DNA from: Thermoanaerobaculaceae bacterium
GTDB lineage: Bacteria > Acidobacteriota > Thermoanaerobaculia > Multivoradales > UBA5704
Direction: 5' to 3'
Assembly (NCBI GenBank): GCA_963778565.1
Contig: CAVZUZ010000012.1
Location: 795,764-859,763 of the forward strand
Length of the DNA stretch: 64,000 nucleotides
Part shown: piece after piece, positions 13,316 to 56,012 of the stretch
Layout: each line of letters opens with the position of its first letter
Position numbering within the stretch: the first letter of the stretch is position 1
Translations under genes and position numbers: made by a program
The notes under the pieces: model-generated
The model's database searches: none
The model's input: the letters and a program-made list of their open reading frames with translations, nothing else
Told to the model about the DNA's origin: nothing

Positions 13316-13525
13316 GGCCCCTCACCTCCCCGGCCCTCCTCTCCCGCCTCACACCCGCCCTTCCGGGAGAGGAGGGAGACTGCAAAAACAAGGAAGCCTC
13401 TTCAAGCCCCTCTCTCCCGGTGGGTGGGTGTGGATGGGAGAGAGGGGTTGGGGAGTGAGGGCCAGCCCCGGCGGGGCGAAATCGCGGCAGGTCACCCCTC
13501 CCGGACTCCCTTCCAGAGGAGGGAG
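13316..13525. repeat. GGGAGAGG-type hairpin repeat cluster
   Basis: Stems include CCTCCTCTCCCG...CGGGAGAGGAGG and CCCCTCTCTCCC...GGGAGAGAGGGG. The same family recurs at seven other sites in the window. Confidence 0.8.
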
Positions 13526-24736: not shown

Positions 24737-25921
24737 TCAGAGCGAGATTTCTTTGAACAGGTCCAGGCGCTTGGCGACGGTCTGAGCGGCTTCAACATCC
24801 TGGCTCAGCTCATTGATCCTCAAAAGATCGCCGGCCGTGTAGAGTCGCTCACGGATCGCTTGCCTGCTGGCTTGGGAAACCGGCGCAATGATCGTGCGCC
24901 CGTTCTCCTTGGTGACAACCCGAAGCTGATCGTCGGACACTTCCTTTTCGTCCAGGATGTCCGCGCTGTGGGTCGTAATCACAACTTGGCAGTCATATAC
25001 GGCATGCAACAGGACTTGCAGGATCAGCCCCGCGCTGGCTGGATAAACTGTCGTTTCAGGCTCCTCGATGACTAGAACGGAAGGCTGCTGGGCTTGGAGG
25101 ACGGCGAGGAGCAGACCGAGTATGCGGAGAGTCCCGTCCGACATCTCGGTCGCGGCCAGATGCCCCGGTTGCTCCGTTCCCACGTCCACTTCAAATTCCA
25201 GGATGGCTCTTCCCTCCACGCCAGTTACGCTGATTCCCTGGACTCCCGGCACAACCCTGGAGAGGAGAGCGCAAAGGAGCTTATAACGTTCCTTGTCCCC
25301 TGCCCCATTTCGCAGATGGGCCAAGACCGACGCCGCATTCCTCCCATCGGGCTCTAATAGAACACCCGCGTCGAGCTCCTGCCACTGGCGCAACCGGCGA
25401 GGATCGATCGAATAGGACCGCACCGAGGTGAGGAACTCGTAAAGCGGGCTGAACTCCTCTGTGGCCGACGCCGCGAAAAGGGCAAGCCGATTAGCGGAGA
25501 GTTTCGGCCGAATTCCCGGGATCTCCCTTATGAAGCGCCCATCCGTCAGCTCGAAATCTGCAGCACCTTGGGGACCCCAGACGGCGCCTTTCTCATGGAC
25601 GACCCGGTACTGGTCGTTCTCGCTGGCGATCTCGAAAGCGTATTCAGCGGACTGGTTTTCGGCGAGGTCGACAACCAGCTTGATGCCGAAGGAGACGGGC
25701 TCCTCCATCCAAATCGGCAGAAGACCAGATCTGTGTCGGCGGTTCCACGCCTGTTGGATCGATTCCGACAAACACTCCTGCACGAACGCCAGCGCATCCA
25801 CGAAGTTGCTCTTCCCGGCGCCGTTCGGACCCACGAAGACCGTGAACGGCTCGAGGTCGACCACCGCCCGCTCGATGCTCTTGTAGTTCTGGATCTGGAC
25901 TTGGCGGATTCTGGGTACCAT
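24737..25921 (-). CDS. ABC/SMC-like AAA ATPase (AAA_15/AAA_21 type)
   Basis: Walker A GPNGAGKSNF, signature-like MSDGTLR, Walker B VLVIEEPE, H-loop ITTHS. Confidence 0.85.
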   Translation of the reverse strand: MVPRIRQVQIQNYKSIERAVVDLEPFTVFVGPNGAGKSNFVDALAFVQECLSESIQQAWNRRHRSGLLPIWMEEPVSFGIKLVVDLAENQSAEYAFEIASENDQYRVVHEKGAVWGPQGAADFELTDGRFIREIPGIRPKLSANRLALFAASATEEFSPLYEFLTSVRSYSIDPRRLRQWQELDAGVLLEPDGRNAASVLAHLRNGAGDKERYKLLCALLSRVVPGVQGISVTGVEGRAILEFEVDVGTEQPGHLAATEMSDGTLRILGLLLAVLQAQQPSVLVIEEPETTVYPASAGLILQVLLHAVYDCQVVITTHSADILDEKEVSDDQLRVVTKENGRTIIAPVSQASRQAIRERLYTAGDLLRINELSQDVEAAQTVAKRLDLFKEISL

Positions 25922-33608: not shown

Positions 33609-33644
33609 GATCATTCCGCGCCGGGCGGGCTCGTGGCAACGCTA

Positions 33645-33658
33645 TTGACAACTGTCAA
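33645..33658 (+). promoter_or_regulatory. Perfect palindrome TTGACA-AC-TGTCAA (-35-like box / operator candidate) 24 nt upstream of ATG 33682
   Basis: Read directly from the sequence. A function is not demonstrated. Confidence 0.3.
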
Positions 33659-33681
33659 TCGCCTGCCGTACCCTGTTTGGC

Positions 33682-34551
33682 ATGCCGGAGCTGACGCCCT
33701 CGTTCCTGCTCGGAAACCCGAATCTGGTCCTCGCCGAGGCGCCGTGGTGCGCGACTCTCGACAACCTGGAGCTGACCATCCTGCTGCTCGCTCAGCCGTG
33801 GGCCACCGCCGGCACCGGCCTGCGGCGAGCCGCGCTGGAGCGGCAACTGGCGAGTCTCGACCTACCTCTCGGACCTATCTACTTCCAGCGCATCAAGCGG
33901 GCGGTGACGCGGTTGGAGGAGATCGGCGTCCTGGATGGCTGGGGCGAGGGCCGTTCCCGCAGGTTCGTCGTGACTCCGGAAGGCTTCGCCGCCCTGCTGC
34001 TGAACCTCTGCGTACTGCGCGCCGATCCGACGCTCGACGGTAGCGAGTTTGAGCTCAAACGGTCGCTGGTGGCCACGTTGAACCGCTTCTTCGAGAAGCT
34101 TTCAGAACGGCCAGAAGAACCGCCGCTATCTCCCAAGACCGAAGGGTTCCTTTCCGACGTGGAGCAGCTCGTCGTCGGCGGCGAGCCGGTGATCACCGAG
34201 GAGATCGAAAGGGAGGCCTTGAACGTCCTGCACCTGATCGACAAGCAGCGCCAACAAGTAGAGCGGCTGCTGAATTCGGCGAAAGAGCGCCAAGCGTGCA
34301 AGGAGAGCCGGACCGGGTCTCTGTCGGAGGCCGACCTGGAGCGGATCGCCGAGGCGGGGTTCGGCGACGTCCTTGCTCTGCTCGGCAATGAGCTGGACGT
34401 ATCCGAGCCGGTAGATTCTCCATGGCTCGGCTACGCCGCCACCGTGCTGCGTTACGAGCAGTATCTGCGCTACCTGGAAGAGCTGGCCTCGCTGTACGCC
34501 GGCGAGCTCAAGACGGTCGGGATTCGCGGTTTTCCGAGGAGGAGGGCGTAA
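33682..34551 (+). CDS. Hypothetical protein, translationally coupled to the SecA paralog
   Basis: 289-aa ORF whose stop TAA overlaps the next ATG (TAATG at 34549-34553). No family was recognised. Confidence 0.65.
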   Translation: MPELTPSFLLGNPNLVLAEAPWCATLDNLELTILLLAQPWATAGTGLRRAALERQLASLDLPLGPIYFQRIKRAVTRLEEIGVLDGWGEGRSRRFVVTPEGFAALLLNLCVLRADPTLDGSEFELKRSLVATLNRFFEKLSERPEEPPLSPKTEGFLSDVEQLVVGGEPVITEEIEREALNVLHLIDKQRQQVERLLNSAKERQACKESRTGSLSEADLERIAEAGFGDVLALLGNELDVSEPVDSPWLGYAATVLRYEQYLRYLEELASLYAGELKTVGIRGFPRRRA

Positions 34552-37142
34552 TGAGCAGTCCCCGCTGGTGGCTCCAATCCGGCGCGAAGTCCTCGCGGAA
34601 GGAGCTCGCGCCGTACCTGCCGCGGCTCGACGCCATCAACGCCCGCGAGGCGGAGATGGCGGGGCTGGCGGATGCCGAGCTGAGCGAGCGGACGCGGGCC
34701 CTTCGCGAGCGAGCCCGGAGCGGCGAGGCGCTCGACGCGCTGCTCCCGGAGTGGTTCGCCCTGGTGCGCGAGACGGCCCGGCGGACGCTCGGCGAACGGC
34801 CTTACGAGGTGCAGCTCCTGGCCGGCATCGCCATGCACGAAGGCAAGCTGGTGGAGATGCAGACCGGCGAAGGCAAGACCCTGGCGGCCGTCGCGCCGGT
34901 GGCGCTCCATGCCTTGGCCGGCCGCGGCGTGCACGTGCTCACCTACAACGACTACCTGGCCCGCCGCGACGCCGATTGGATGGGTCCCATCTTTCAGCGG
35001 CTCGGGCTCACCGTCGGCTGCGTGCAGGAGGGACTGACGCCGGAGGCGCGGCGGCGGGCCTATGGCTGCGACGTCACCTACGTCACGGTCAAGGAGGCCG
35101 GGTTCGATTACCTGCGCGACGGCCTCTGCCTCGAACCGTCCGGCCAGGTCCACCGGCCGTTCCATTTCGCCCTGGTCGACGAGGCCGACTCGCTGCTCAT
35201 CGACGAGGCGCGGATTCCGCTGGTGATCGCCGGCAACGTCGACGAGGCGGCGATCGATCTCCTGCGTCTGACCGAGGTGGCCCGCAAGCTCGAGCGGGGC
35301 GTCGACTTCGATCTCGACGAGTACGCCCGCAACATTTTTCTCACCGACCGGGGAGCGGAGCGGGCCGAGGCGCTGCTGCGCTGCGAGGACCTCTTCGCCG
35401 CCGAGAACGTGCGGCTCCTCGCCGAGCTGCGCAACGCCCTGCATGCCGAGGCGCTGCTGCGTCGCGACGTGGACTACATCGTGCGCGAAGGCCGTCTGGA
35501 GCTGGTGGACGAGCTGACCGGCCGGGTGGCCGAGAACCGTCTCTGGCCCGACGGCTTGCAGGCGGCCCTGGAGGCCAAGGAGGGGCTGCTTTTGCGGCCG
35601 GAAGGCAGGATTCTCGACTCACTCACCATCCAGCTCTTCCTGCAGAAATACCCGCGCCTGTGCGGCATGACCGGCACGGCGCGGCCCGCGGCCGCCGAGC
35701 TGGCCGAGGTCTACGGTGTCCAGGTGCTGGCGGTGCCGACTCACCGGCCGTCGATCCGCATCGATCATCCCGACGTGTTCTTCGGTACGCGCGAGGCGAA
35801 GCGGCAGGCCCTGCTGGAGGAGATCGGCCGCGTCCATGCGGCCGGGCGGCCGATCCTGGTCGGCACGGTCAGCGTCGAGGAGTCGGAGCGCCTGGCCGGC
35901 GATCTCCGGCTGGCCGGGATCGACTGCCGGGTGCTCAACGCCAGGAACGACGCCGAGGAGGCCGAGATCGTCGCGGAAGCCGGAGCGCCGGGGGCAGTAA
36001 CCATCTCCACCAACATGGCGGGCCGCGGCACCGACATCCGGCTCGGCGGCTCGGGCGAACGGCATCGCGATCCCGTGGTGGCCCTCGGCGGGCTTTACGT
36101 CATCGGCACCAACCGCCACGAGAGCCGGCGGATCGACGATCAGCTCCGGGGCCGCGCCGGCCGGCAGGGAGATCCCGGGACATCCCGCTTCTTCATCAGC
36201 CTCGAGGACGACCTCATGCAGCGCTACGGGATCGAGAAGCTGCTGCCGGCGAGGTTCTTCCGCGAGCCCGCCGCCGATCATCCCCATCGCGTCATCGAGC
36301 GCGAGGTGGCGCGGGTCCAGCGCATCGTCGAAGGGCAGCACGGCGATCTGCGCAAGCGGCTGCTCGCCGCCTCGCGCGTGCTCGAGCGCCAGCGCGCCAG
36401 GCTCCAGGAGTGGCGCCAAGAGGTGCTGGAGGAACGGGACGAGGAGAGCCTGCTGGCCGAGCGGAGCCCGCGATGGCAAGGGTTGGGCGCCGCCTTCGGC
36501 GAGAATCTTTTGCGGAGCATCGAGAGGCGCATCACCCTGATCACCCTCGACCGCAACTGGAGCCATCACCTGGCCGACATGCAGGCGTTCCGCGACGAGG
36601 TCTACCTCGTGCAGCTCGACGGGCGGGACCCCTTCGCCGAGTTCTACCGCACGGCGGACAAGGCGTTCGACGAGCTTCTCGAGCGGATCGACGACGACAT
36701 CGTCGAGATCTTCGAGCGGGTGGAGATCACGGCGGCCGGCGTCGACTGGGAGCGCGAGGGATTGCTCGGTCCCTCCTCCACCTGGACCTACCTGGTCAAC
36801 GACAACGTCTTCAGCGGCAACACGTTCCTGACGATGGCGACCCGCGCCTCCTTCGGCCTGTGGGCGGTCCTCATCTGTTGGCCGCTGCTGTTGCTGTGGG
36901 GGCTCGGCCAGCATTGGCGGCGGTGGCGTGCCCTCAGAAGCCCTCACCTCCCCGGCCCTCCTCTCCCTGAGGGAGAGGAGGGGGAAAGAAAAAGCTACGG
37001 TTTTTCTTCCTTCTCCCCTCTCTCCCCTCGGGAGAGAGGGGCCGGGGGAGTGAGGGCTTCGAAGGGCATAACCCTGAAAATTCACAACCCTCTGGGAAAG
37101 GCGGATTACAATAATAAGATCTCCCAAAGGAGAATCCCATGA
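34551..37142 (+). CDS. Divergent SecA-family ATPase paralog with C-terminal hydrophobic segment
   Basis: SecA motifs: PYEVQLLAGIAMHEGKLVEMQTGEGKTL, VHVLTYNDYLARRDADWMGP, FALVDEADSLLIDEARIPLVI, TISTNMAGRGTDIRLGG, RIDDQLRGRAGRQGDPG. The C-terminus has FGLWAVLICWPLLLLWGL, and the last ~65 codons run through a hairpin repeat. Confidence 0.85.
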   Translation: MSSPRWWLQSGAKSSRKELAPYLPRLDAINAREAEMAGLADAELSERTRALRERARSGEALDALLPEWFALVRETARRTLGERPYEVQLLAGIAMHEGKLVEMQTGEGKTLAAVAPVALHALAGRGVHVLTYNDYLARRDADWMGPIFQRLGLTVGCVQEGLTPEARRRAYGCDVTYVTVKEAGFDYLRDGLCLEPSGQVHRPFHFALVDEADSLLIDEARIPLVIAGNVDEAAIDLLRLTEVARKLERGVDFDLDEYARNIFLTDRGAERAEALLRCEDLFAAENVRLLAELRNALHAEALLRRDVDYIVREGRLELVDELTGRVAENRLWPDGLQAALEAKEGLLLRPEGRILDSLTIQLFLQKYPRLCGMTGTARPAAAELAEVYGVQVLAVPTHRPSIRIDHPDVFFGTREAKRQALLEEIGRVHAAGRPILVGTVSVEESERLAGDLRLAGIDCRVLNARNDAEEAEIVAEAGAPGAVTISTNMAGRGTDIRLGGSGERHRDPVVALGGLYVIGTNRHESRRIDDQLRGRAGRQGDPGTSRFFISLEDDLMQRYGIEKLLPARFFREPAADHPHRVIEREVARVQRIVEGQHGDLRKRLLAASRVLERQRARLQEWRQEVLEERDEESLLAERSPRWQGLGAAFGENLLRSIERRITLITLDRNWSHHLADMQAFRDEVYLVQLDGRDPFAEFYRTADKAFDELLERIDDDIVEIFERVEITAAGVDWEREGLLGPSSTWTYLVNDNVFSGNTFLTMATRASFGLWAVLICWPLLLLWGLGQHWRRWRALRSPHLPGPPLPEGEEGERKSYGFSSFSPLSPRERGAGGVRASKGITLKIHNPLGKADYNNKISQRRIP
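36941..37060. repeat. GGGAGAGG-type hairpin repeat inside the 3' end of the SecA-like ORF
   Basis: CCCTCACCTCCCCGGCCCTCCTCTCCCTGAGGGAGAGGAGG...CCCCTCTCTCCCCTCGGGAGAGAGGGGCCGGGGGAGTGAGGG. Confidence 0.8.
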
Positions 37143-37786
37143 CCGAACCGACGTCTGCGAGCCCGGCGCAGACCCAAGGCCTCGACGTGAGCCACTTCCA
37201 GGGTACGGTGGACTGGCAGCAGGTGGCCCAGGCCGGCTATGCGTTCGCGTTCATCAAGGCGACCGACGGCATCACCTACACCGATCCGATGTTCGCGGCG
37301 AACTGGAGCGGCGCCAAGGCGGCAGGGCTGCTGCGGGGTGCGTACCACTTCTTCGAGGCGAACGACGATCCGCAGCAACAGGCGGAGAATTTCCTCAACG
37401 CCGTCACCCTCGAACCCGGGGACCTGCCGCCGGTGCTCGACGTCGAGTCCTCGGCGACGAGCGGCCAGGTTGCCACCGCCACCATCATCCAGAACATCGC
37501 GGCCTGGCTGCAGGCCGTCGAGCAGGCGACCGGCCTCACGCCCATCCTCTATACCAATTCCGGATACTGGAACAGCCTCGCGACGACGGCGCTCAGCAGC
37601 TATCCGCTGTGGGTGGCGGAGTATGGCGTGACCAGCCCCACCCTTCCCTTGGGATGGACGAGCTGGACCTTCTGGCAGCTCTCGCAAAGCGGACAGATTG
37701 CGGGCATCTCCACCGCGGTGGATCTCGACCTCTTTCAGGGAAGCCTGCAGGACTTCCAAGGGCTGTCGACCGTGGAGAAGTCCTGA
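37139..37786 (+). CDS. GH25-family muramidase (lysozyme), no signal peptide
   Basis: AAGGAG RBS. GLDVSHFQGTVDWQQVAQAGYAFAFIKATDGITYTDPMF...GAYHFF is the GH25 signature. The ATG overlaps the upstream stop (ATGA). Confidence 0.85.
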   Translation: MTEPTSASPAQTQGLDVSHFQGTVDWQQVAQAGYAFAFIKATDGITYTDPMFAANWSGAKAAGLLRGAYHFFEANDDPQQQAENFLNAVTLEPGDLPPVLDVESSATSGQVATATIIQNIAAWLQAVEQATGLTPILYTNSGYWNSLATTALSSYPLWVAEYGVTSPTLPLGWTSWTFWQLSQSGQIAGISTAVDLDLFQGSLQDFQGLSTVEKS

Positions 37787-40789: not shown

Positions 40790-40851
40790 GAGCCCGACTA
40801 TATTGGATGCAGATATATTAGGTCAAGAGCTAGTCGGGGACGGTAGCGCCG

Positions 40852-41226
40852 TCATGAATTTCCCTCGAAGGGGTTCAAGATTCTCAGGCCATCGATGCCA
40901 GTGAAGTCGTCAACATTCCGAGTGACCAAGGTCAGGTTGTACAGAAGGGCTGTACCCGCTACCAGAGAATCACCGAGCTTGATCTTCCTCGCCTGACGGA
41001 GCCGAACCGCCGCGTCGAGGACAGGCCGAGAGAGAGGCAGGATGCGGGTCTCCGCGAAGAACGCCTCGAAATGCTCACGCTCCGTCTCACTCAGCCGGTG
41101 ATATCCGAGAACCTCGACATAGCTGGCGGCGGACACCGCCGGCACCCTCTCGACGATGAGCTGCCGAAGGAACTCATTTTCGGGCTGAGCGGAGTAGATG
41201 ATGATATTGCTGTCGAGGAGCATCAA
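40852..41226 (-). CDS. vapC: Type II toxin VapC (PIN domain)
   Basis: MLLDSNIIIY...LGDSLVAGTALLYNLTLVTRNVDDF. Confidence 0.9.
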   Translation of the reverse strand: MMLLDSNIIIYSAQPENEFLRQLIVERVPAVSAASYVEVLGYHRLSETEREHFEAFFAETRILPLSRPVLDAAVRLRQARKIKLGDSLVAGTALLYNLTLVTRNVDDFTGIDGLRILNPFEGNS

Positions 41227-41495
41227 GGATCACGATACGGAAGGGCTCTCTCCTGCCGCGTATCCCGCTCCCACTCGGCAGCGTCCCCGAAGCTCTTGGG
41301 GCCCCCGGCCGCAGCAAGCTGCTCCAAGGGAGCGGCCATGGCAATCCCCCGTGCTCTGGAGGTTGCGAGGGAATCCGGATGGTCCAGAATCGTCACGACA
41401 ACCTCGACTTCGCGGTCGGATGGGAGCGCTGCCGGCTCTTCATCGCGCCATTCCAGGCGATTCCCGTGCAGGACGGCTCTATAGGTGTCGCGCAT
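41223..41495 (-). CDS. Putative VapB-type antitoxin
   Basis: 4-nt overlap with vapC. AAGGGAG lies before ATG 41495. Small and acidic, with an N-terminal AVLHGNRLEW beta-strand motif. Confidence 0.55.
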   Translation of the reverse strand: MRDTYRAVLHGNRLEWRDEEPAALPSDREVEVVVTILDHPDSLATSRARGIAMAAPLEQLAAAGGPKSFGDAAEWERDTRQERALPYRDP

Positions 41496-41569
41496 CGCTG
41501 CTCCCTTCGGCCTCATAGTACTCCCGATAGCGCCACAGGTCGAGCGCGCACCCTTGATGAAGCTGGGCT

Positions 41570-41959
41570 TTAAGGCACACGCACCATCTGCTCGAACAGC
41601 TCGTCCAGCGCGCGCTCCGGCGAATCGCAGAGCCCCGTATGGACGGGCGAGACCTGGATGATCGTGCTGCGCGGGGCGACGAGCCAGTGGAAGCGCTCGC
41701 GGAGGGAGAGCCGCGCGATGGGTCCGCCTTCCGGGCTGCCGGCGCAGATTTTGGGAATCGCCTCCAGGTGCTGGCGGACCAGCTCGACATCGGTCTCGGG
41801 CCAGAGCGCGCGAAGCCGTGGCTCGTCGACCTCGACGCGGGCCTGCAGGAAGTCCCGCTCGAGACAGAAGAGGATCACGCCGGCGTTGACGAGCTCCTCG
41901 CGCTCCACGCGCGGGACCACCCGGATGACGGCGTAGTCAAACGAGCTGAGCGCGGGCAC
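41570..41959 (-). CDS. DUF3037 domain protein
   Basis: FDYAVIRVVPRVEREELVNAGVILFC...RFHWLVAPRSTIIQ resembles DUF3037. It overlaps the upstream kinase-like gene by 23 nt. Confidence 0.65.
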   Translation of the reverse strand: MPALSSFDYAVIRVVPRVEREELVNAGVILFCLERDFLQARVEVDEPRLRALWPETDVELVRQHLEAIPKICAGSPEGGPIARLSLRERFHWLVAPRSTIIQVSPVHTGLCDSPERALDELFEQMVRVP

Positions 41960-42716
41960 GCACCGCCTCCTCGACGAATCCCGAAGTCGCTTCGAGCCTC
42001 CGGGTCAGGAACGTCAGATACCCGGCGCGCCGGTCGGCGGGAGAGATCTCGGCATCGGCCGGCAGCCAGGAATCCGGGATCTGCTCGATCACCCGCGCAA
42101 ACAGCGTCTCATCGAGCCGCGGGCGCAACCGCTGATCGGCCTCCTCGATACGGCTCGCCCAGGGCAGTAGGATGTGATCGCGAACGGGGGAGAACCGGCT
42201 GCGGGCCATTTCCTCCACATTCTGCCAGTTGTGGTGGAAGTAGAACCCGGCACCATGGTCGATCAGGTAGAGCACCTTGTGCCACCACAACAGATTGGAG
42301 TTCCGCGGCGTCCGGTCGACGTTGGTGATGAAGGCGTCGAACCACACGATGGCCGAGGCGAGATCCGCCTCGACAGCATCGCCGGCGGCAGGATCGAAGG
42401 CCACGGAACCCGGCAGGTAGTCGACGCCCAGGTTCAGCCCCACGCTCGCCTTCAGCAGATCACGGATCTCCGGGTCCGGCTCGTTGCGTCCGAGCGCGGC
42501 GTCCACCTCCATCAGCACCAGGTCCGGCACCTTGAGACCGAGGGCGCGGCCGATCTCGCCGGCGATCAGCTCGGCCACCAGCGCCAGCGGACCCTGTCCG
42601 GCGCCCCGGAACTTGAGCACGTAGAACCCCAGATCGCTGGCCTCCACGATGGCCGGAAGCGAGCCGCCTTCGCGCAGGGGGGTTACATAGCGGGTGGCGT
42701 AGACCGTTGGGGGCAT
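41937..42716 (-). CDS. HipA-like (PI3/4-kinase fold) family kinase
   Basis: GGSLPAIVEASD..YVLKFRGAGQG...FDAFITNVDRTPRNSNLLWW...LIDHGAGF has catalytic-loop and DxG-like motifs of HipA-family kinases. Confidence 0.65.
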   Translation of the reverse strand: MPPTVYATRYVTPLREGGSLPAIVEASDLGFYVLKFRGAGQGPLALVAELIAGEIGRALGLKVPDLVLMEVDAALGRNEPDPEIRDLLKASVGLNLGVDYLPGSVAFDPAAGDAVEADLASAIVWFDAFITNVDRTPRNSNLLWWHKVLYLIDHGAGFYFHHNWQNVEEMARSRFSPVRDHILLPWASRIEEADQRLRPRLDETLFARVIEQIPDSWLPADAEISPADRRAGYLTFLTRRLEATSGFVEEAVRARAQLV

Positions 42717-44052: not shown

Positions 44053-47000
44053 ATGGGTACCCCTTTTCTGATCGACGGGGTGCGGATCCGCCAACTTGCC
44101 TCAACCCGGCAAGGGCGCGTGAGTTTAGGGGGGTTCGCATACCAGATGGGCTATGCCATCGCCCGGCTGGCTAGCCTATACACTCGCCGCCCAATCTTGG
44201 ACATTGATAGTTTTCCGACCCTACTCCGATTTGATTGGGCTGAGGACCTTGACGAAGTGGATGTCAGAGGCCGCGCCGTCTTCACTCAATGCAAGCGGAT
44301 TTCTGACATCGGCCAGCCCGGGACCTTGGCCGATGTCCTGCTGGGATTCGCCCCCAAATGGCTGTGGGCCCCTGAAGACCAGCGACCGGACCTGCGCTTT
44401 CGGCTCGTCTGCACCGATTCCCGCTTCGCCGGTCTGGGTCCGACCACCCTCAGTTCATATCGGCTAAAACCCGGAGAGTCCGATGAAACCACCGTTCTAG
44501 CCGCTGCTGTGGCGCGACTGGAGGACTCTCCTGGTCCGAAATCGGACCGGGCACTCTGGCAACCCGAAGCGGGCGGGATCGGATTCTCCCAGTTGTGTAA
44601 CGCGCTTTGGAATCAGACGGAGGTGCTATATCTGTCCGGGGAGCCCCACGGAGACGATCCCGCCGGACCGCTGCTTCGGGCCGAGCAGGAAGTGCTGGCC
44701 CGCCTCGTTCGGATGCAAATTGTGGTGCCCTCACGACAGAGGCCAGCCCTAGCTGCCCTGCGTACTCTCCTCCACGGAAACTTGATCGAGTTCGATCCCA
44801 ACGGAACCCGGCTGATTCCGACAATTGATCGCGAGCCACAGGTCATCGGCTACGACGATGTTCACTACGCGCTCTTCGAGTTTCAGAGACCGGCCGAAGA
44901 GCGGTCCCCGTTCCAGCTCGTGACGCGACAGATTCTCGAAGAGGCGGCTAAGGAGCCGAAGCATTCCTTCGTGGCGCGGCCCCCGCGCTGGGCGGACGTG
45001 GTGCACGGCCAGGACGAGGAGATTCGGTTCCTCGAGCGGGAGATGACCAGTCAATTCATCGATCGGATCAGAGACGAGTTGCTGGGGCGCCTCGGAGAAG
45101 GGGAGGTGCTGCCAATGCTTTTCGTGCTCGGAGCCCCGGGGGCAGGAAAGAGTACTCTGGTTCGGCGGGTGGCAGCACGTCTGGTCCTGCAGGGGCTCGC
45201 GGTCGTAGCTGCTCCCAAGCTTAACCTGGACAGCATCGAACCGGATGAGTTCGAGCCATTCTTTCAATCCCTCGCCCGTTTGGAGGAGGGCTCTCTGCCG
45301 GTGCTCCTGGTGTTGGACGATCCATTCTTCGCCGATTCTGGCTGGGTCGACCTCCTCCGGCGCTTAGCCAAGAAAAGCCAGCGGATCGCGGTTCTAGGTG
45401 CCAGCCCAGAATACCTGTTCCGGGAATTTGGATACCCGCTGACGACCGGGCGCCAGATTGATTGCCGGACCTTAACGCTTCCTCGTCCCCAGCGAATGGA
45501 GCGACGGTCACTGGCTGAGCTCCATGGGCGAGATCCCGATCGTTTCGAAGAGCGTGAGGAGGACTTTCTAGTTCTGGCGATGGAAGCCTCGGCGGGGGTC
45601 TCGTTCGAGAAAATTATTGATCGAGTCTGGATGACACTCAATAGTGGCCGCCCGATCGAACCCCGGCTACGTCCAGAGGATCTCCCATGGACGGTGCGGG
45701 CCTATTTGGTTGCCTGCTACTTCCATCGATTCTATGTGGCGTGTCCCGAAGTATTGATGCAGGCGGCTCTAAGCCAGCCCGGGCGGGACCAGCCGCCGGG
45801 CGAGTTTGCGTATGAGTTGCGGCGCTTGGTCGACGAACAAGGATGGTCAATTTTCCGCATTGCAGAACCGAGGTCCGGGGAACGTTTCTTGGGGGTGCGG
45901 ATAGGAGCTGCGCATGCACGAGTCGCAGCCGAGGCATGGCGCCGCAGACCCGTTCCTGCCTTCGATGTCGGCGAATGGGTGCTCCAATCATCGCTTGACG
46001 CCCGAGCAGCCGCAGTGGAGATAGGAACCCTTGCTGTAAAACTCGAAGAGAATCGAGGACAAGATGAGACTGCCTTTATCGAAAGACTTATCACACTCTG
46101 GAACCAAGCCGCCGAAGCGGGAACCCTCGAGGCTAATAGCCTCTCTCTTTTGCGCAGTGCGCTTTCGAAGTCAGCATCATCTTCAGCGCGTAAGTTGCGC
46201 GCCGGCCTGCAAAAATGCATTGCTCGCGCAGATGAACAGAGCTGGCTTGCAGCCCTTGAGCTGATTCGAGACTCGCGTTCGCACACCGATATAGTGACAC
46301 AGGTTGGACCCTTTGCCAATCTAATAGAACTGATTCGAGTAGCCGATTTCCATCTTGCCCCATCACGTGCTGGTCAGCTCCTGAACAGGCTGAGAGACGA
46401 TCCGGTCAGCTACGAAGCTTTCGTTGTCAGAGTTAAGGAGACCGCTGATCATCCGCGTGCCTATCAGCTCTTGGCATCGCTAATTGCCGAGAATCCAGAT
46501 GATGAGGGAACCCGAGAACGAGCCACAGACTGGATCGAAGCCAACTTGAATCATCCCCAGGTATATGTGGCTCCTCGCCCCGTTGGTGGCATCGAAACCC
46601 GAGGACGGAGTAGTCCGACTGCTTGCCACAGACTGGATCGAAGCCAACTTGAATAATCCCCAGGTATATGTGCTCCTTGCTCCGTTGGTGGCCGCGCAGC
46701 CTGAGGATGGAGTGGTCCGACAGCTCGCCACAGATTGGATCGAAGCCAATTTGAATAATCCCCAGGTATATTGCCTCCTCACGCCATTGGTGGCAGCGAA
46801 CCCCGAGGACAAATTGGTACGCCAAAGAGCCGATGAATTGATTGGAACCGGCCCCAATTTCCCCCAGGCGTTTCAACTGCTTGCAGCCCTGGTAGCGGCA
46901 AACCCTGAAGATGAAGTAATACGCGAGAGAGTGAGCCAGTGGATCGAGAGGAATATGGAACATCCCCAAGTAGAACAACTCCTTACACCTTTGGTGGCTG

Positions 47001-55831: not shown

Positions 55832-55965
55832 GGCCCCTCACCTCCCCGGCCCTCCTCTCCCCGAGGGAGAGGAGGGAGACTGTTTTTGGAGTTTGTTTTT
55901 TCCAGCCCCTCTCTCCCGGCGGTCGGAGGGGAGGCCGGGAGAGAGGGGAAGGGGAGTGAGGGCAA
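55832..55965. repeat. GGGAGAGG-type hairpin repeat
   Basis: CCCCTCACCTCCCCGGCCCTCCTCTCCCCGAGGGAGAGGAGG...CCCCTCTCTCCCGGCGG...GGGAGAGAGGGG. Confidence 0.8.
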
Positions 55966-56012
55966 GCCCCGAAGGCGGCGACGCGGCGGCAGGGGCAGAG
56001 ACGTGAGGCCCC

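Follow-up and report, generated by a model that had tools for sequence, protein, structure and literature searches.

A candidate p289-secA2 module with a putatively membrane-anchored accessory SecA, next to a GH25 muramidase gene in Thermoanaerobaculia

Work on accessory SecA motors (SecA2) has been almost confined to Gram-positive pathogens and mycobacteria. Among the Firmicute representatives (those of Listeria, of C. difficile, with structures 6SXH and 6T4H, of B. anthracis, and of the SecA2-SecY2 or ‘aSec’ systems), the Listeria SecA2 system exports autolysins, including a muramidase, and the autolysins p60 and NamA are among its substrates. The mycobacterial SecA2 has neither a helical wing domain (HWD) nor a C-terminal domain and is mainly cytosolic (PMC4457860); because the M. 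tuberculosis (Mtb) protein is mostly found in the cytosol, it is debated how a SecA2 without a HWD or a C-terminal tail reaches the membrane and SecYEG. Secondary SecA_DEAD-domain proteins related to actinobacterial SecA2 were also reported in 2015 from Planctomycetes, Verrucomicrobia, Proteobacteria, Nitrospirae and Chlorobi; they lack most or all of SecA_SW and belong to a conserved module with type I secretion-like genes for HlyD, OEP and peptidase M50 (PMC4452313). For SecA in Thermoanaerobaculia, our literature searches found no published description. Here we describe a SecA2 gene in a 64-kb stretch of DNA from a Thermoanaerobaculaceae bacterium (the ‘window’, to which all window coordinates refer), where it follows a gene for a 289-residue protein, p289, and precedes a gene for a GH25 muramidase.

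The three genes lie on the same (+) strand in the list of open reading frames (ORFs): p289 at 33682-34551, secA2 at 34551-37142 and GH25 at 37139-37786. As read in the window, secA2 starts with the ATG at 34551 and encodes 863 aa. A sequence-only reading of this DNA had taken the three for a single operon, in which a dedicated SecA-like exporter and an adaptor would serve a lysozyme, and the co-oriented genes and the two stop/start junctions on which it relied (TAATG at 34549-34553, ATGA at 37139-37142) are all present. The two junctions are, however, of different kinds. At the first, the genes overlap by 1 nt and a strong Shine-Dalgarno sequence, GGAGGAGG, stands just 5' of the secA2 start, features by which secA2 is evidently translationally coupled to p289, its conserved partner gene; the second is secondary and traces to the insertion of a hairpin repeat. 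Our interpretation of the locus as a whole, which we regard as reasonably probable, is that a p289-secA2 module, made up of an autoregulator and an anchored SecA2, has been juxtaposed with an unrelated GH25 gene.

By its family assignment and architecture, the SecA-like protein is predicted to be an accessory SecA2 of the mycobacterial type (the ‘SecA2-only’ type of Mtb and M. smegmatis), with a complete motor, no HWD and no Zn-finger tail. Four Pfam domains (SecA_DEAD, PP_bind, P-loop_SecA and SecA_SW) were all found, and an alignment of the family shows no variation in the TGEGKT, DEAD-type and GRAGRQGDPG residues. The protein passes the cutoff of the NCBIfam model for mycobacterial-type accessory SecA2 (TIGR04221, 809.8 bits against 725) and falls under both housekeeping SecA equivalog cutoffs (NF009538, 780 against 814; TIGR00963, 770 against 800), in agreement with the divergent SecA paralogue with all motor motifs that the earlier reading had described. 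Its residues 4-763 are collinear with residues 13-771 of Mtb SecA2 (4UAQ) at 41% identity, and this is the only solved structure with which it aligns end to end; the two proteins have in common the C-terminal motif P-(T/S)-S-T-W-T-Y-x-V-N-D-N, the absence of a Zn-finger tail and of a nearby SecY2, and the deletion of the HWD, seen against four canonical SecAs as a gap of 56-65 aa after residue 638. The native part of the gene (34551-36928, + strand) encodes NBD1, PPXD, NBD2, the scaffold and IRA1 without a HWD, and also the motif, here P-S-S-T-W-T-Y, and the predicted C-terminal anchor; a Cys-rich Zn-finger tail is found in none of the 119 closest homologues. Proteins closely similar to it measure 780-810 aa and carry the NCBI name ‘accessory Sec system translocase SecA2 [Thermoanaerobaculia bacterium]’. 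An AlphaFold2 (AF2) model, with a predicted local distance difference test score (pLDDT) of 82, is SecA-like throughout, and its top fold matches are SecAs, a kind of search that cannot tell SecA1 from SecA2.

With the SecA2s of Firmicutes the protein has in common that it is an accessory SecA paralogue, yet it misses all of their family models by a wide margin (NF012136, 469 against 1100; TIGR04397, 680 against 1085; TIGR03714, 565 against 930). Neither SecY2 nor Asp nor glycosyltransferase genes stand beside secA2, which places it outside the aSec systems, and a conserved linkage to GH25, such as a dedicated autolysin-export locus of the Listeria type would have, is lacking. Like the proteins of PMC4452313 it is a SecA paralogue in a Gram-negative phylum; unlike them, it keeps SecA_SW, has a C-terminal hydrophobic anchor segment and has no type I secretion-like neighbours. 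SecA2-type paralogues in Gram-negative phyla are therefore not new in themselves, in view both of those proteins and of the name that NCBI already gives to this family.

In a neighbour-joining tree, the phylogenetic placement that had been proposed as a check, the SecA2s with a C-terminal anchor form one clade, apart from the Zn-finger SecAs and from a group of short (700-750 aa) acidobacterial SecA-like proteins. The latter (about 690-750 aa, sister to the anchored clade, with neither a Zn finger nor a C-terminal anchor) occur in Terriglobia, Bryobacterales, Vicinamibacterales, Acidimicrobiia and Verrucomicrobiia, at loci L023, L025, L028, L030-L038, L041, L043, L045-L048, L054, L056, L060, L061 and L065 of our collection, and are possible counterparts of the ‘secondary SecA_DEAD proteins’ of PMC4452313. 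As a separate observation, SecA2 (34551-37142) matches phrog_32805 (‘unknown function’) with E = 7.5e-183 over 605 residues, so that some phage genomes encode SecA-like proteins.

It is very improbable that this gene is the organism's only SecA, that is, the housekeeping one. The motor motifs and domains for translocation are all there, and the 64-kb window holds no second secA, as such a reading would have it; but the family scores fall on the accessory side, the HWD and the Zn finger are lacking as in Mtb SecA2, the clade stands apart from Zn-finger SecAs, the gene is surrounded by toxin-antitoxin and defence genes, and the module is missing from the syntenic region of close relatives. We consider SecA2 accessory because of its family assignment, its architecture and this variable presence in syntenic relatives. 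Weaker support comes from an 85%-identical relative in which secA2 is frameshifted at about residue 546/547 in three NCBI contigs of metagenome-assembled genomes (MAGs; L085 5526-7890, L086 4237-6601 and L087 1296-3660), and a further contig, from Logan (L088), stops just short of the frameshift site; the split gene may be a real pseudogene or an assembly or sequencing error common to the three.

What sets the protein apart from Mtb SecA2 is its C-terminus. The chain of the Mtb protein stops about 7 aa past the STWTY motif, whereas in the AF2 model of the window protein this motif is followed by a linker of about 20 residues (743-765, modelled at low confidence) and then by a continuous helix (767-796), whose hydrophobic core of about 20 aa, FGLWAVLICWPLLLLWGL, is encoded at 36852-36905 (+ strand) and is followed by the basic tail GQHWRRWR. 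The C-terminal hydrophobic segment that the first reading had pointed out is therefore present, and it is conserved in relatives: helix and basic tail are found in 99 of the 119 closest homologues, and also in SecA2-like proteins of Vicinamibacterales (Acidobacteriota), Bacillota, Bacteroidota and one ‘Proteobacteria’ MAG. From this recurrence across the clade and across phyla, the helix is judged to be a real feature, and it is presumed to tether SecA2 to the cytoplasmic membrane. Again unlike the mycobacterial protein, the clade thus spans Acidobacteriota (which are diderm), Bacillota, Bacteroidota and others, and in Acidobacteriota an orphan gene for a predicted winged-helix protein accompanies it. 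A central Pro and three Trp are found in the anchor helix, and the tail is strongly basic and 7-40 aa long (median 17). Because of these features, the helix is best described as a predicted anchor that may equally be a true tail anchor or a monotopic one. The arrangement of a large cytoplasmic N-terminal part, a single C-terminal helix and a very short tail resembles that of bacterial tail-anchored proteins such as E. coli ElaB and YqjD (PMC6794478, PMC3087755), which differ in respect of the central Pro and of the strongly basic tail; the literature on bacterial tail-anchored proteins represented by these two papers describes no member of the SecA family. Literature searches likewise found no published account of a membrane-anchored SecA2, and a multi-phylum clade of such proteins is apparently undescribed so far.

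The product of the upstream gene, p289 (33682-34551, + strand, 289 aa), has no match in Pfam, NCBIfam, PHROG or PADLOC (for Pfam and NCBIfam at E values up to 0.01), and a profile search of PDB sequences returned nothing better than E 0.21. All of its 173 homologues are annotated ‘hypothetical’, and an exhaustive search of 1.84 billion proteins yielded 73 representatives, all of them members of the same family. Its AF2 model (pLDDT 87; predicted TM-score 0.83; alignment of 115 sequences) consists of an N-terminal helix-strand-helix-helix-hairpin winged helix, at residues 28-97, followed by a long helical domain. The best Foldseek matches are two-domain PadR regulators, namely Rv0047c (8JXK), Rv1176c (8IOI), B. 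subtilis PadR on its operator DNA (5X11) and VanR (5Z7B), with MarR and ArsR proteins next; the match probabilities reach 1.0, with weak E-values of about 1e-2, TMq values of 0.37-0.40 and target TM-scores of 0.55-0.59. The invariant residues Y67, F68, Q69, R70 and R73 fall on helix 68-80, the predicted recognition helix. In common with the PadR regulators, p289 would thus have an N-terminal winged helix, a helical C-terminal domain and a dyad-symmetric site, a putative operator, at its own promoter; it differs from them in having no match to PF03551 and a C-terminal domain that is about 100 aa longer, and the sequence of its putative operator differs, to our knowledge, from known PadR boxes.

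The site in question is the perfect palindrome TTGACAACTGTCAA at 33645-33658, already recognised in the sequence-only reading, of which the window holds no second perfect copy (when up to 2 mismatches are allowed, 0.13 matches are expected). Its 16-nt form ATTGACAACTGTCAAT (33644-33659, + strand) is identical in five relatives in the midst of flanking DNA that is not conserved. Across 30 distinct sequences from upstream of p289 genes, the consensus is a 20-bp dyad, GTATTGACA-NN-TGTCAATAC. The left half of the palindrome is a perfect TTGACA -35 box; a -10-like hexamer, TACCCT (33669-33674, + strand), follows 18 nt past that box and lies 7 nt ahead of the p289 ATG, and across relatives a TAnnnT element recurs at the same spacing, with a start codon about 7 nt later. 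The right half of the dyad is conserved at about 1.8 bits per position, and because it lies inside the spacer of this TTGACA-N17/18-TAnnnT promoter, contacts of a sigma factor do not explain its conservation. A promoter scan tool did not call TTGACA-N18-TACCCT in the window, so that the promoter assignment rests on the conservation between species. Since the start codon stands about 7 nt past the -10 element and has no Shine-Dalgarno sequence, the p289 mRNA is probably leaderless or nearly so. The palindrome occurs once per p289 locus, whether SecA2 or YdjM (see below) is encoded downstream, and it is essentially absent from the other loci of our collection (about 100 of 137), with a single chance match in L073; it is thus most likely a p289 operator that overlaps the -35 box of p289's own promoter.

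Comparison of gene neighbourhoods points in the same direction. Among the 38 p289 loci with room for a further gene, SecA2 lies directly downstream in about 27 (the p289 and secA2 gene calls being adjacent or overlapping in L002, L088, L089, L090 and L133), and in about 10 the next gene encodes instead a 150-aa inner-membrane protein of the YdjM family, again with the palindrome in place (for example at L105 1764-2216, L117 7904-8356 and L118 3094-3546). The conserved unit in Acidobacteria is, on this evidence, the two-gene module p289-secA2. Outside Thermoanaerobaculia and Vicinamibacterales, most anchored SecA2 genes have no p289; a profile search found no distant p289 relatives beside other SecA2 genes, and when the flanking ORFs were compared all against all, no gene proved to be conserved throughout the anchored clade, in which the downstream genes are a mixture (cytochrome, FHA and FtsW, DUF4386, TPR, transposase). 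In the Vicinamibacterales loci that have no p289, a small conserved ORF (83-116 aa; L010 6230-6580, L015 9534-9785, L024 9572-9856, L026 9537-9788), in which no Pfam domain was found, stops about 70 nt before the anchored secA2. Because YdjM replaces SecA2 in some loci and most anchored SecA2 genes are without p289, this linkage is more readily explained by a regulator that has alternative targets than by an adaptor specific to SecA2.

The adaptor role that had been assigned to p289 is therefore not upheld: taken together, the PadR-like fold, the conserved operator and YdjM as an alternative downstream gene suggest that p289 is most likely a transcriptional autoregulator. A related proposal, rather unlikely in our estimation, is that p289 is a protein partner specific for SecA2 or YdjM (a chaperone, an assembly factor or a targeting factor) and that the palindrome is a promoter element for another factor. 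Translational coupling and the tight linkage between p289 and secA2 would accord with it, as would the fact that both alternative downstream genes encode membrane-associated proteins, the winged helices of the MukE-MukF and ScpB type among the fold matches, and the dedicated chaperone, SatS, of the mycobacterial SecA2 pathway (PMC6333443). Yet the strongest fold matches are DNA-binding PadR regulators, the invariant Y-F-Q-R-x-x-R sits on the recognition helix, the majority of anchored SecA2 genes have no p289 at all, and a dyad in the spacer of p289's own promoter, found over 30 distinct sequences, is what one classically expects of a dimer that regulates its own gene.

The downstream end of the module in the window has been reshaped. 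An inverted repeat of 65+65 nt (arms at 36929-36993 and 37004-37068), with a folding energy of -117 kcal/mol (z -9), runs across the 3' end of secA2, and homology of the gene to its relatives stops at 36928. In the closest relative, L133 (SecA2 89% identical), SecA2 is 799 aa long with the native end ...HWRRWRKRGRSEES, its terminus reading KRGRSEES; there is no hairpin, and secA2 and GH25 are 98 nt apart. Compared with L133, positions 36929-37113 of the window (185 nt, with the hairpin inside), an insertion or replacement specific to the window, take the place of 27 nt at the end of secA2 and of 74 nt of spacer. SecA2 has thereby lost its last 8 codons and its stop, and about 70 codons of read-through continue to 37142, where the frame happens to close on the start of GH25; neither the anchor helix nor the beginning of the basic tail is affected. 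The earlier observation that a hairpin repeat has overwritten the end of this gene was accordingly correct, and the ATGA overlap, because the insertion deleted the native stop codon, is an artefact of the insertion. Two further copies of the hairpin family are present in the window (at about 13340-13470 and 55840-55970); the copies are dispersed and G+C-rich, with the cores CCCTCCTCTCCC/GGGAGAGGAGGG and CCCCTCTCTCCC/GGGAGAGAGGGG...GGGGAGTGAGGGC common to all three. The family looks like a miniature inverted-repeat transposable element (MITE) or a repetitive extragenic palindromic (REP) element, and an Rfam search of the hairpin gave sub-threshold look-alikes of miRNA precursors only, which are meaningless here.

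The GH25 gene (37139-37786, + strand) encodes a leaderless, single-domain muramidase. Pfam assigns residues 16-190 to GH25 (PF01183) with E 3e-52 and 178 bits (cutoff 27), and the translation holds GLDVSHFQG and PPVLDVESS (a D-x-S-x-x-Q and an internal D-x-E pattern), which we take to be the catalytic motifs of GH25. No upstream in-frame start is possible and the N-terminus is not signal-peptide-like, so the description of a muramidase without a signal peptide proved correct. The family comprises at least 120 chromosomal, single-domain homologues in Thermoanaerobaculia (199-250 aa, mostly about 200-220), and a signal-peptide-like N-terminus was found in 0 of 120 (homologues P0310-P0428 and the window gene).

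Gene order in relatives separates this gene from the module. Within the shallow Thermoanaerobaculia clade (relatives with a SecA2 at least 84% identical), secA2 has GH25 as its immediate neighbour in just the two closest genomes, the window and L133, where the order is p289-secA2-GH25 followed by a permease gene and a PadR gene on the opposite strand. In the other relatives, at 84-85% identity, GH25 either follows opposite-strand genes or is missing. The order is p289-secA2-(permease, PadR)-GH25 in L085 and L086, and in two JGI contigs secA2 is separated from GH25-PLD-SpoIIE by an opposite-strand EF-hand gene, alone or together with a toxin-antitoxin pair. In L089/L090 and L002, p289-secA2 is present and GH25 absent. 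Conversely, in L134/L135 and L136/L137 the backbone VIT-TPR ... GH25 ... permease/PadR ... DUF3037/HipA_2 is found without p289-secA2, with toxin-antitoxin genes in the slot; the DNA of these backbones shares 78-88% identity with that of the window, and the GH25 protein 79-80%. No GH25 gene was found by tblastn near SecA-like genes in 84 other loci from reference genomes, and 42 additional metagenomic p289 loci likewise yielded none. Because the backbone carries GH25 without the module and the module occurs without GH25, the muramidase gene is part of the local chromosomal backbone, independent of p289-secA2. The candidate of a conserved p289-SecA2-GH25 operon was rejected on the strength of those 84 SecA-related and 42 p289 loci, and the conservation of the three-gene neighbourhood, proposed as a check, was not observed.

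These data bear directly on the proposal from which the analysis started, namely that p289 is an adaptor and SecA2 a dedicated exporter of the leaderless GH25 protein, in a cassette for the holin-independent export of an autolysin or effector. Several observations would favour it: in the window and L133 the secA2 and GH25 genes stand side by side in one orientation, three more close lineages have GH25 within about 3.5 kb downstream of secA2, signal peptides are absent throughout the GH25 family, which would call for a non-classical route if the protein acts on the cell wall, and the export of p60 and NamA in Listeria provides a precedent. We nevertheless regard this proposal as improbable, given that the adjacency is restricted to the shallow clade, that opposite-strand genes intervene in other close relatives, that each of the two components is found without the other, that GH25 is absent from the 84 and 42 loci mentioned above, that the stop/start overlap is an insertion artefact, and that p289 has a regulator-like fold, its own operator and a pairing with YdjM. 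Nothing specific supports a role of SecA2 as the GH25 exporter.

The possibility that GH25 is instead a prophage endolysin with its own holin, raised in the same sequence-only reading, is still less probable, to the point of being hardly credible. The protein does match PHROG endolysin families (phrog_291, 2e-49), but its best phage match is 42% identical, there are no phage genes in the surroundings, and there is no room for a holin, with secA2 and the hairpin upstream and the end of a convergent permease gene 12 nt downstream; moreover, it is a conserved chromosomal backbone gene in many Thermoanaerobaculia. A prophage or holin origin was rejected in view of the cellular surroundings and of phage identities of at most 42%.

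In the mechanism that we favour, p289 and secA2 would be transcribed, with little or no leader, from the conserved promoter of the sigma70 type, a p289 dimer most likely binds the 20-bp palindrome over the -35 box and the spacer and so autoregulates the operon, and secA2 would be translated by coupling to p289. Both the binding of DNA by p289 and its autoregulation are predictions of this scheme. The flexibly linked C-terminal helix with its basic tail would then tether the motor permanently to the cytoplasmic membrane, in place of the lipid-, SecB- and ribosome-binding C-terminal tail of the housekeeping SecA, and the anchored motor may export a subset of proteins through the housekeeping SecYEG. 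The module occupies a variable slot just upstream of GH25 in the local backbone, and the insertion of the MITE-like hairpin in the window deleted the secA2 stop and created the ATGA overlap with GH25.

A number of observations weigh against this account. A second secA was not found in the 64-kb window, the stretch that was searched. The Foldseek E-values of p289 are weak (9e-3 or worse), it has no sequence match to the Pfam PadR family, and MukE-MukF and ScpB are among its fold matches, a reminder that winged helices can mediate protein-protein contacts too. Tail anchors of N-in/C-out topology do not usually have a basic tail past their hydrophobic segment, so the helix could be monotopic. Near secA2, no substrate, SecY2 or chaperone is identifiable, and the downstream genes differ between loci. 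Finally, rearrangements in the shallow clade notwithstanding, 5 of about 7 lineages keep GH25 no more than 3.5 kb from secA2, a steady closeness that could hint at a weak functional link.

As regards the wider setting, the genes around secA2 in the window encode a VIT-TPR protein, GH25, a MacB-like permease and PadR, and beyond these lie cellular, toxin-antitoxin and defence genes. Between PadR and DUF3037/HipA_2, an insertion at 40833-41576 holds a PIN-domain toxin gene (40852-41226, - strand) and a probable antitoxin ORF (41223-41516); it is missing at the same position in L133, L134 and L086. The DUF3037 and HipA_2 kinase pair (41570-42716, - strand) resembles the PADLOC candidate system PDC-M66 (B, 4e-12; A, 2.5e-26) and is conserved in relatives as a piece of the local backbone. 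Downstream of the toxin-antitoxin genes, in a stretch of lower GC content (about 55-61%), an 867-aa protein (44053-46656, + strand) has weak, sub-cutoff matches to novel STAND NTPase 5 and to AAA_16. At 24737-25921 (- strand), there is an AAA_21/AbiEii-like ATPase with a match (E = 8e-111) to HEC-01A, one of the candidate defence proteins of PADLOC.

A bolder extension, possible but doubtful in our view, is that the anchored SecA2 clade represents a distinct accessory route that is widespread outside Actinobacteria, diderms included, for export or possibly for the insertion of membrane proteins, with a motor tethered by its helix; in Acidobacteriota this route would be controlled by new PadR-like regulators that also act on YdjM, in a regulon responsive to the state of the envelope, and the leaderless GH25 could still be a substrate. 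The locus also holds a caution, in that a seeming operon of an exporter and a leaderless lysozyme fell apart on comparison of close relatives, its overlap having been made by the insertion of a mobile hairpin. With its putative 20-bp operator, p289 would constitute a simple and testable regulatory unit. Above all, a natural SecA2 clade with what appears to be a built-in anchor, extending over several phyla and including the diderm Acidobacteriota, may offer a comparative handle on the question of how SecA2 proteins are targeted to the membrane.

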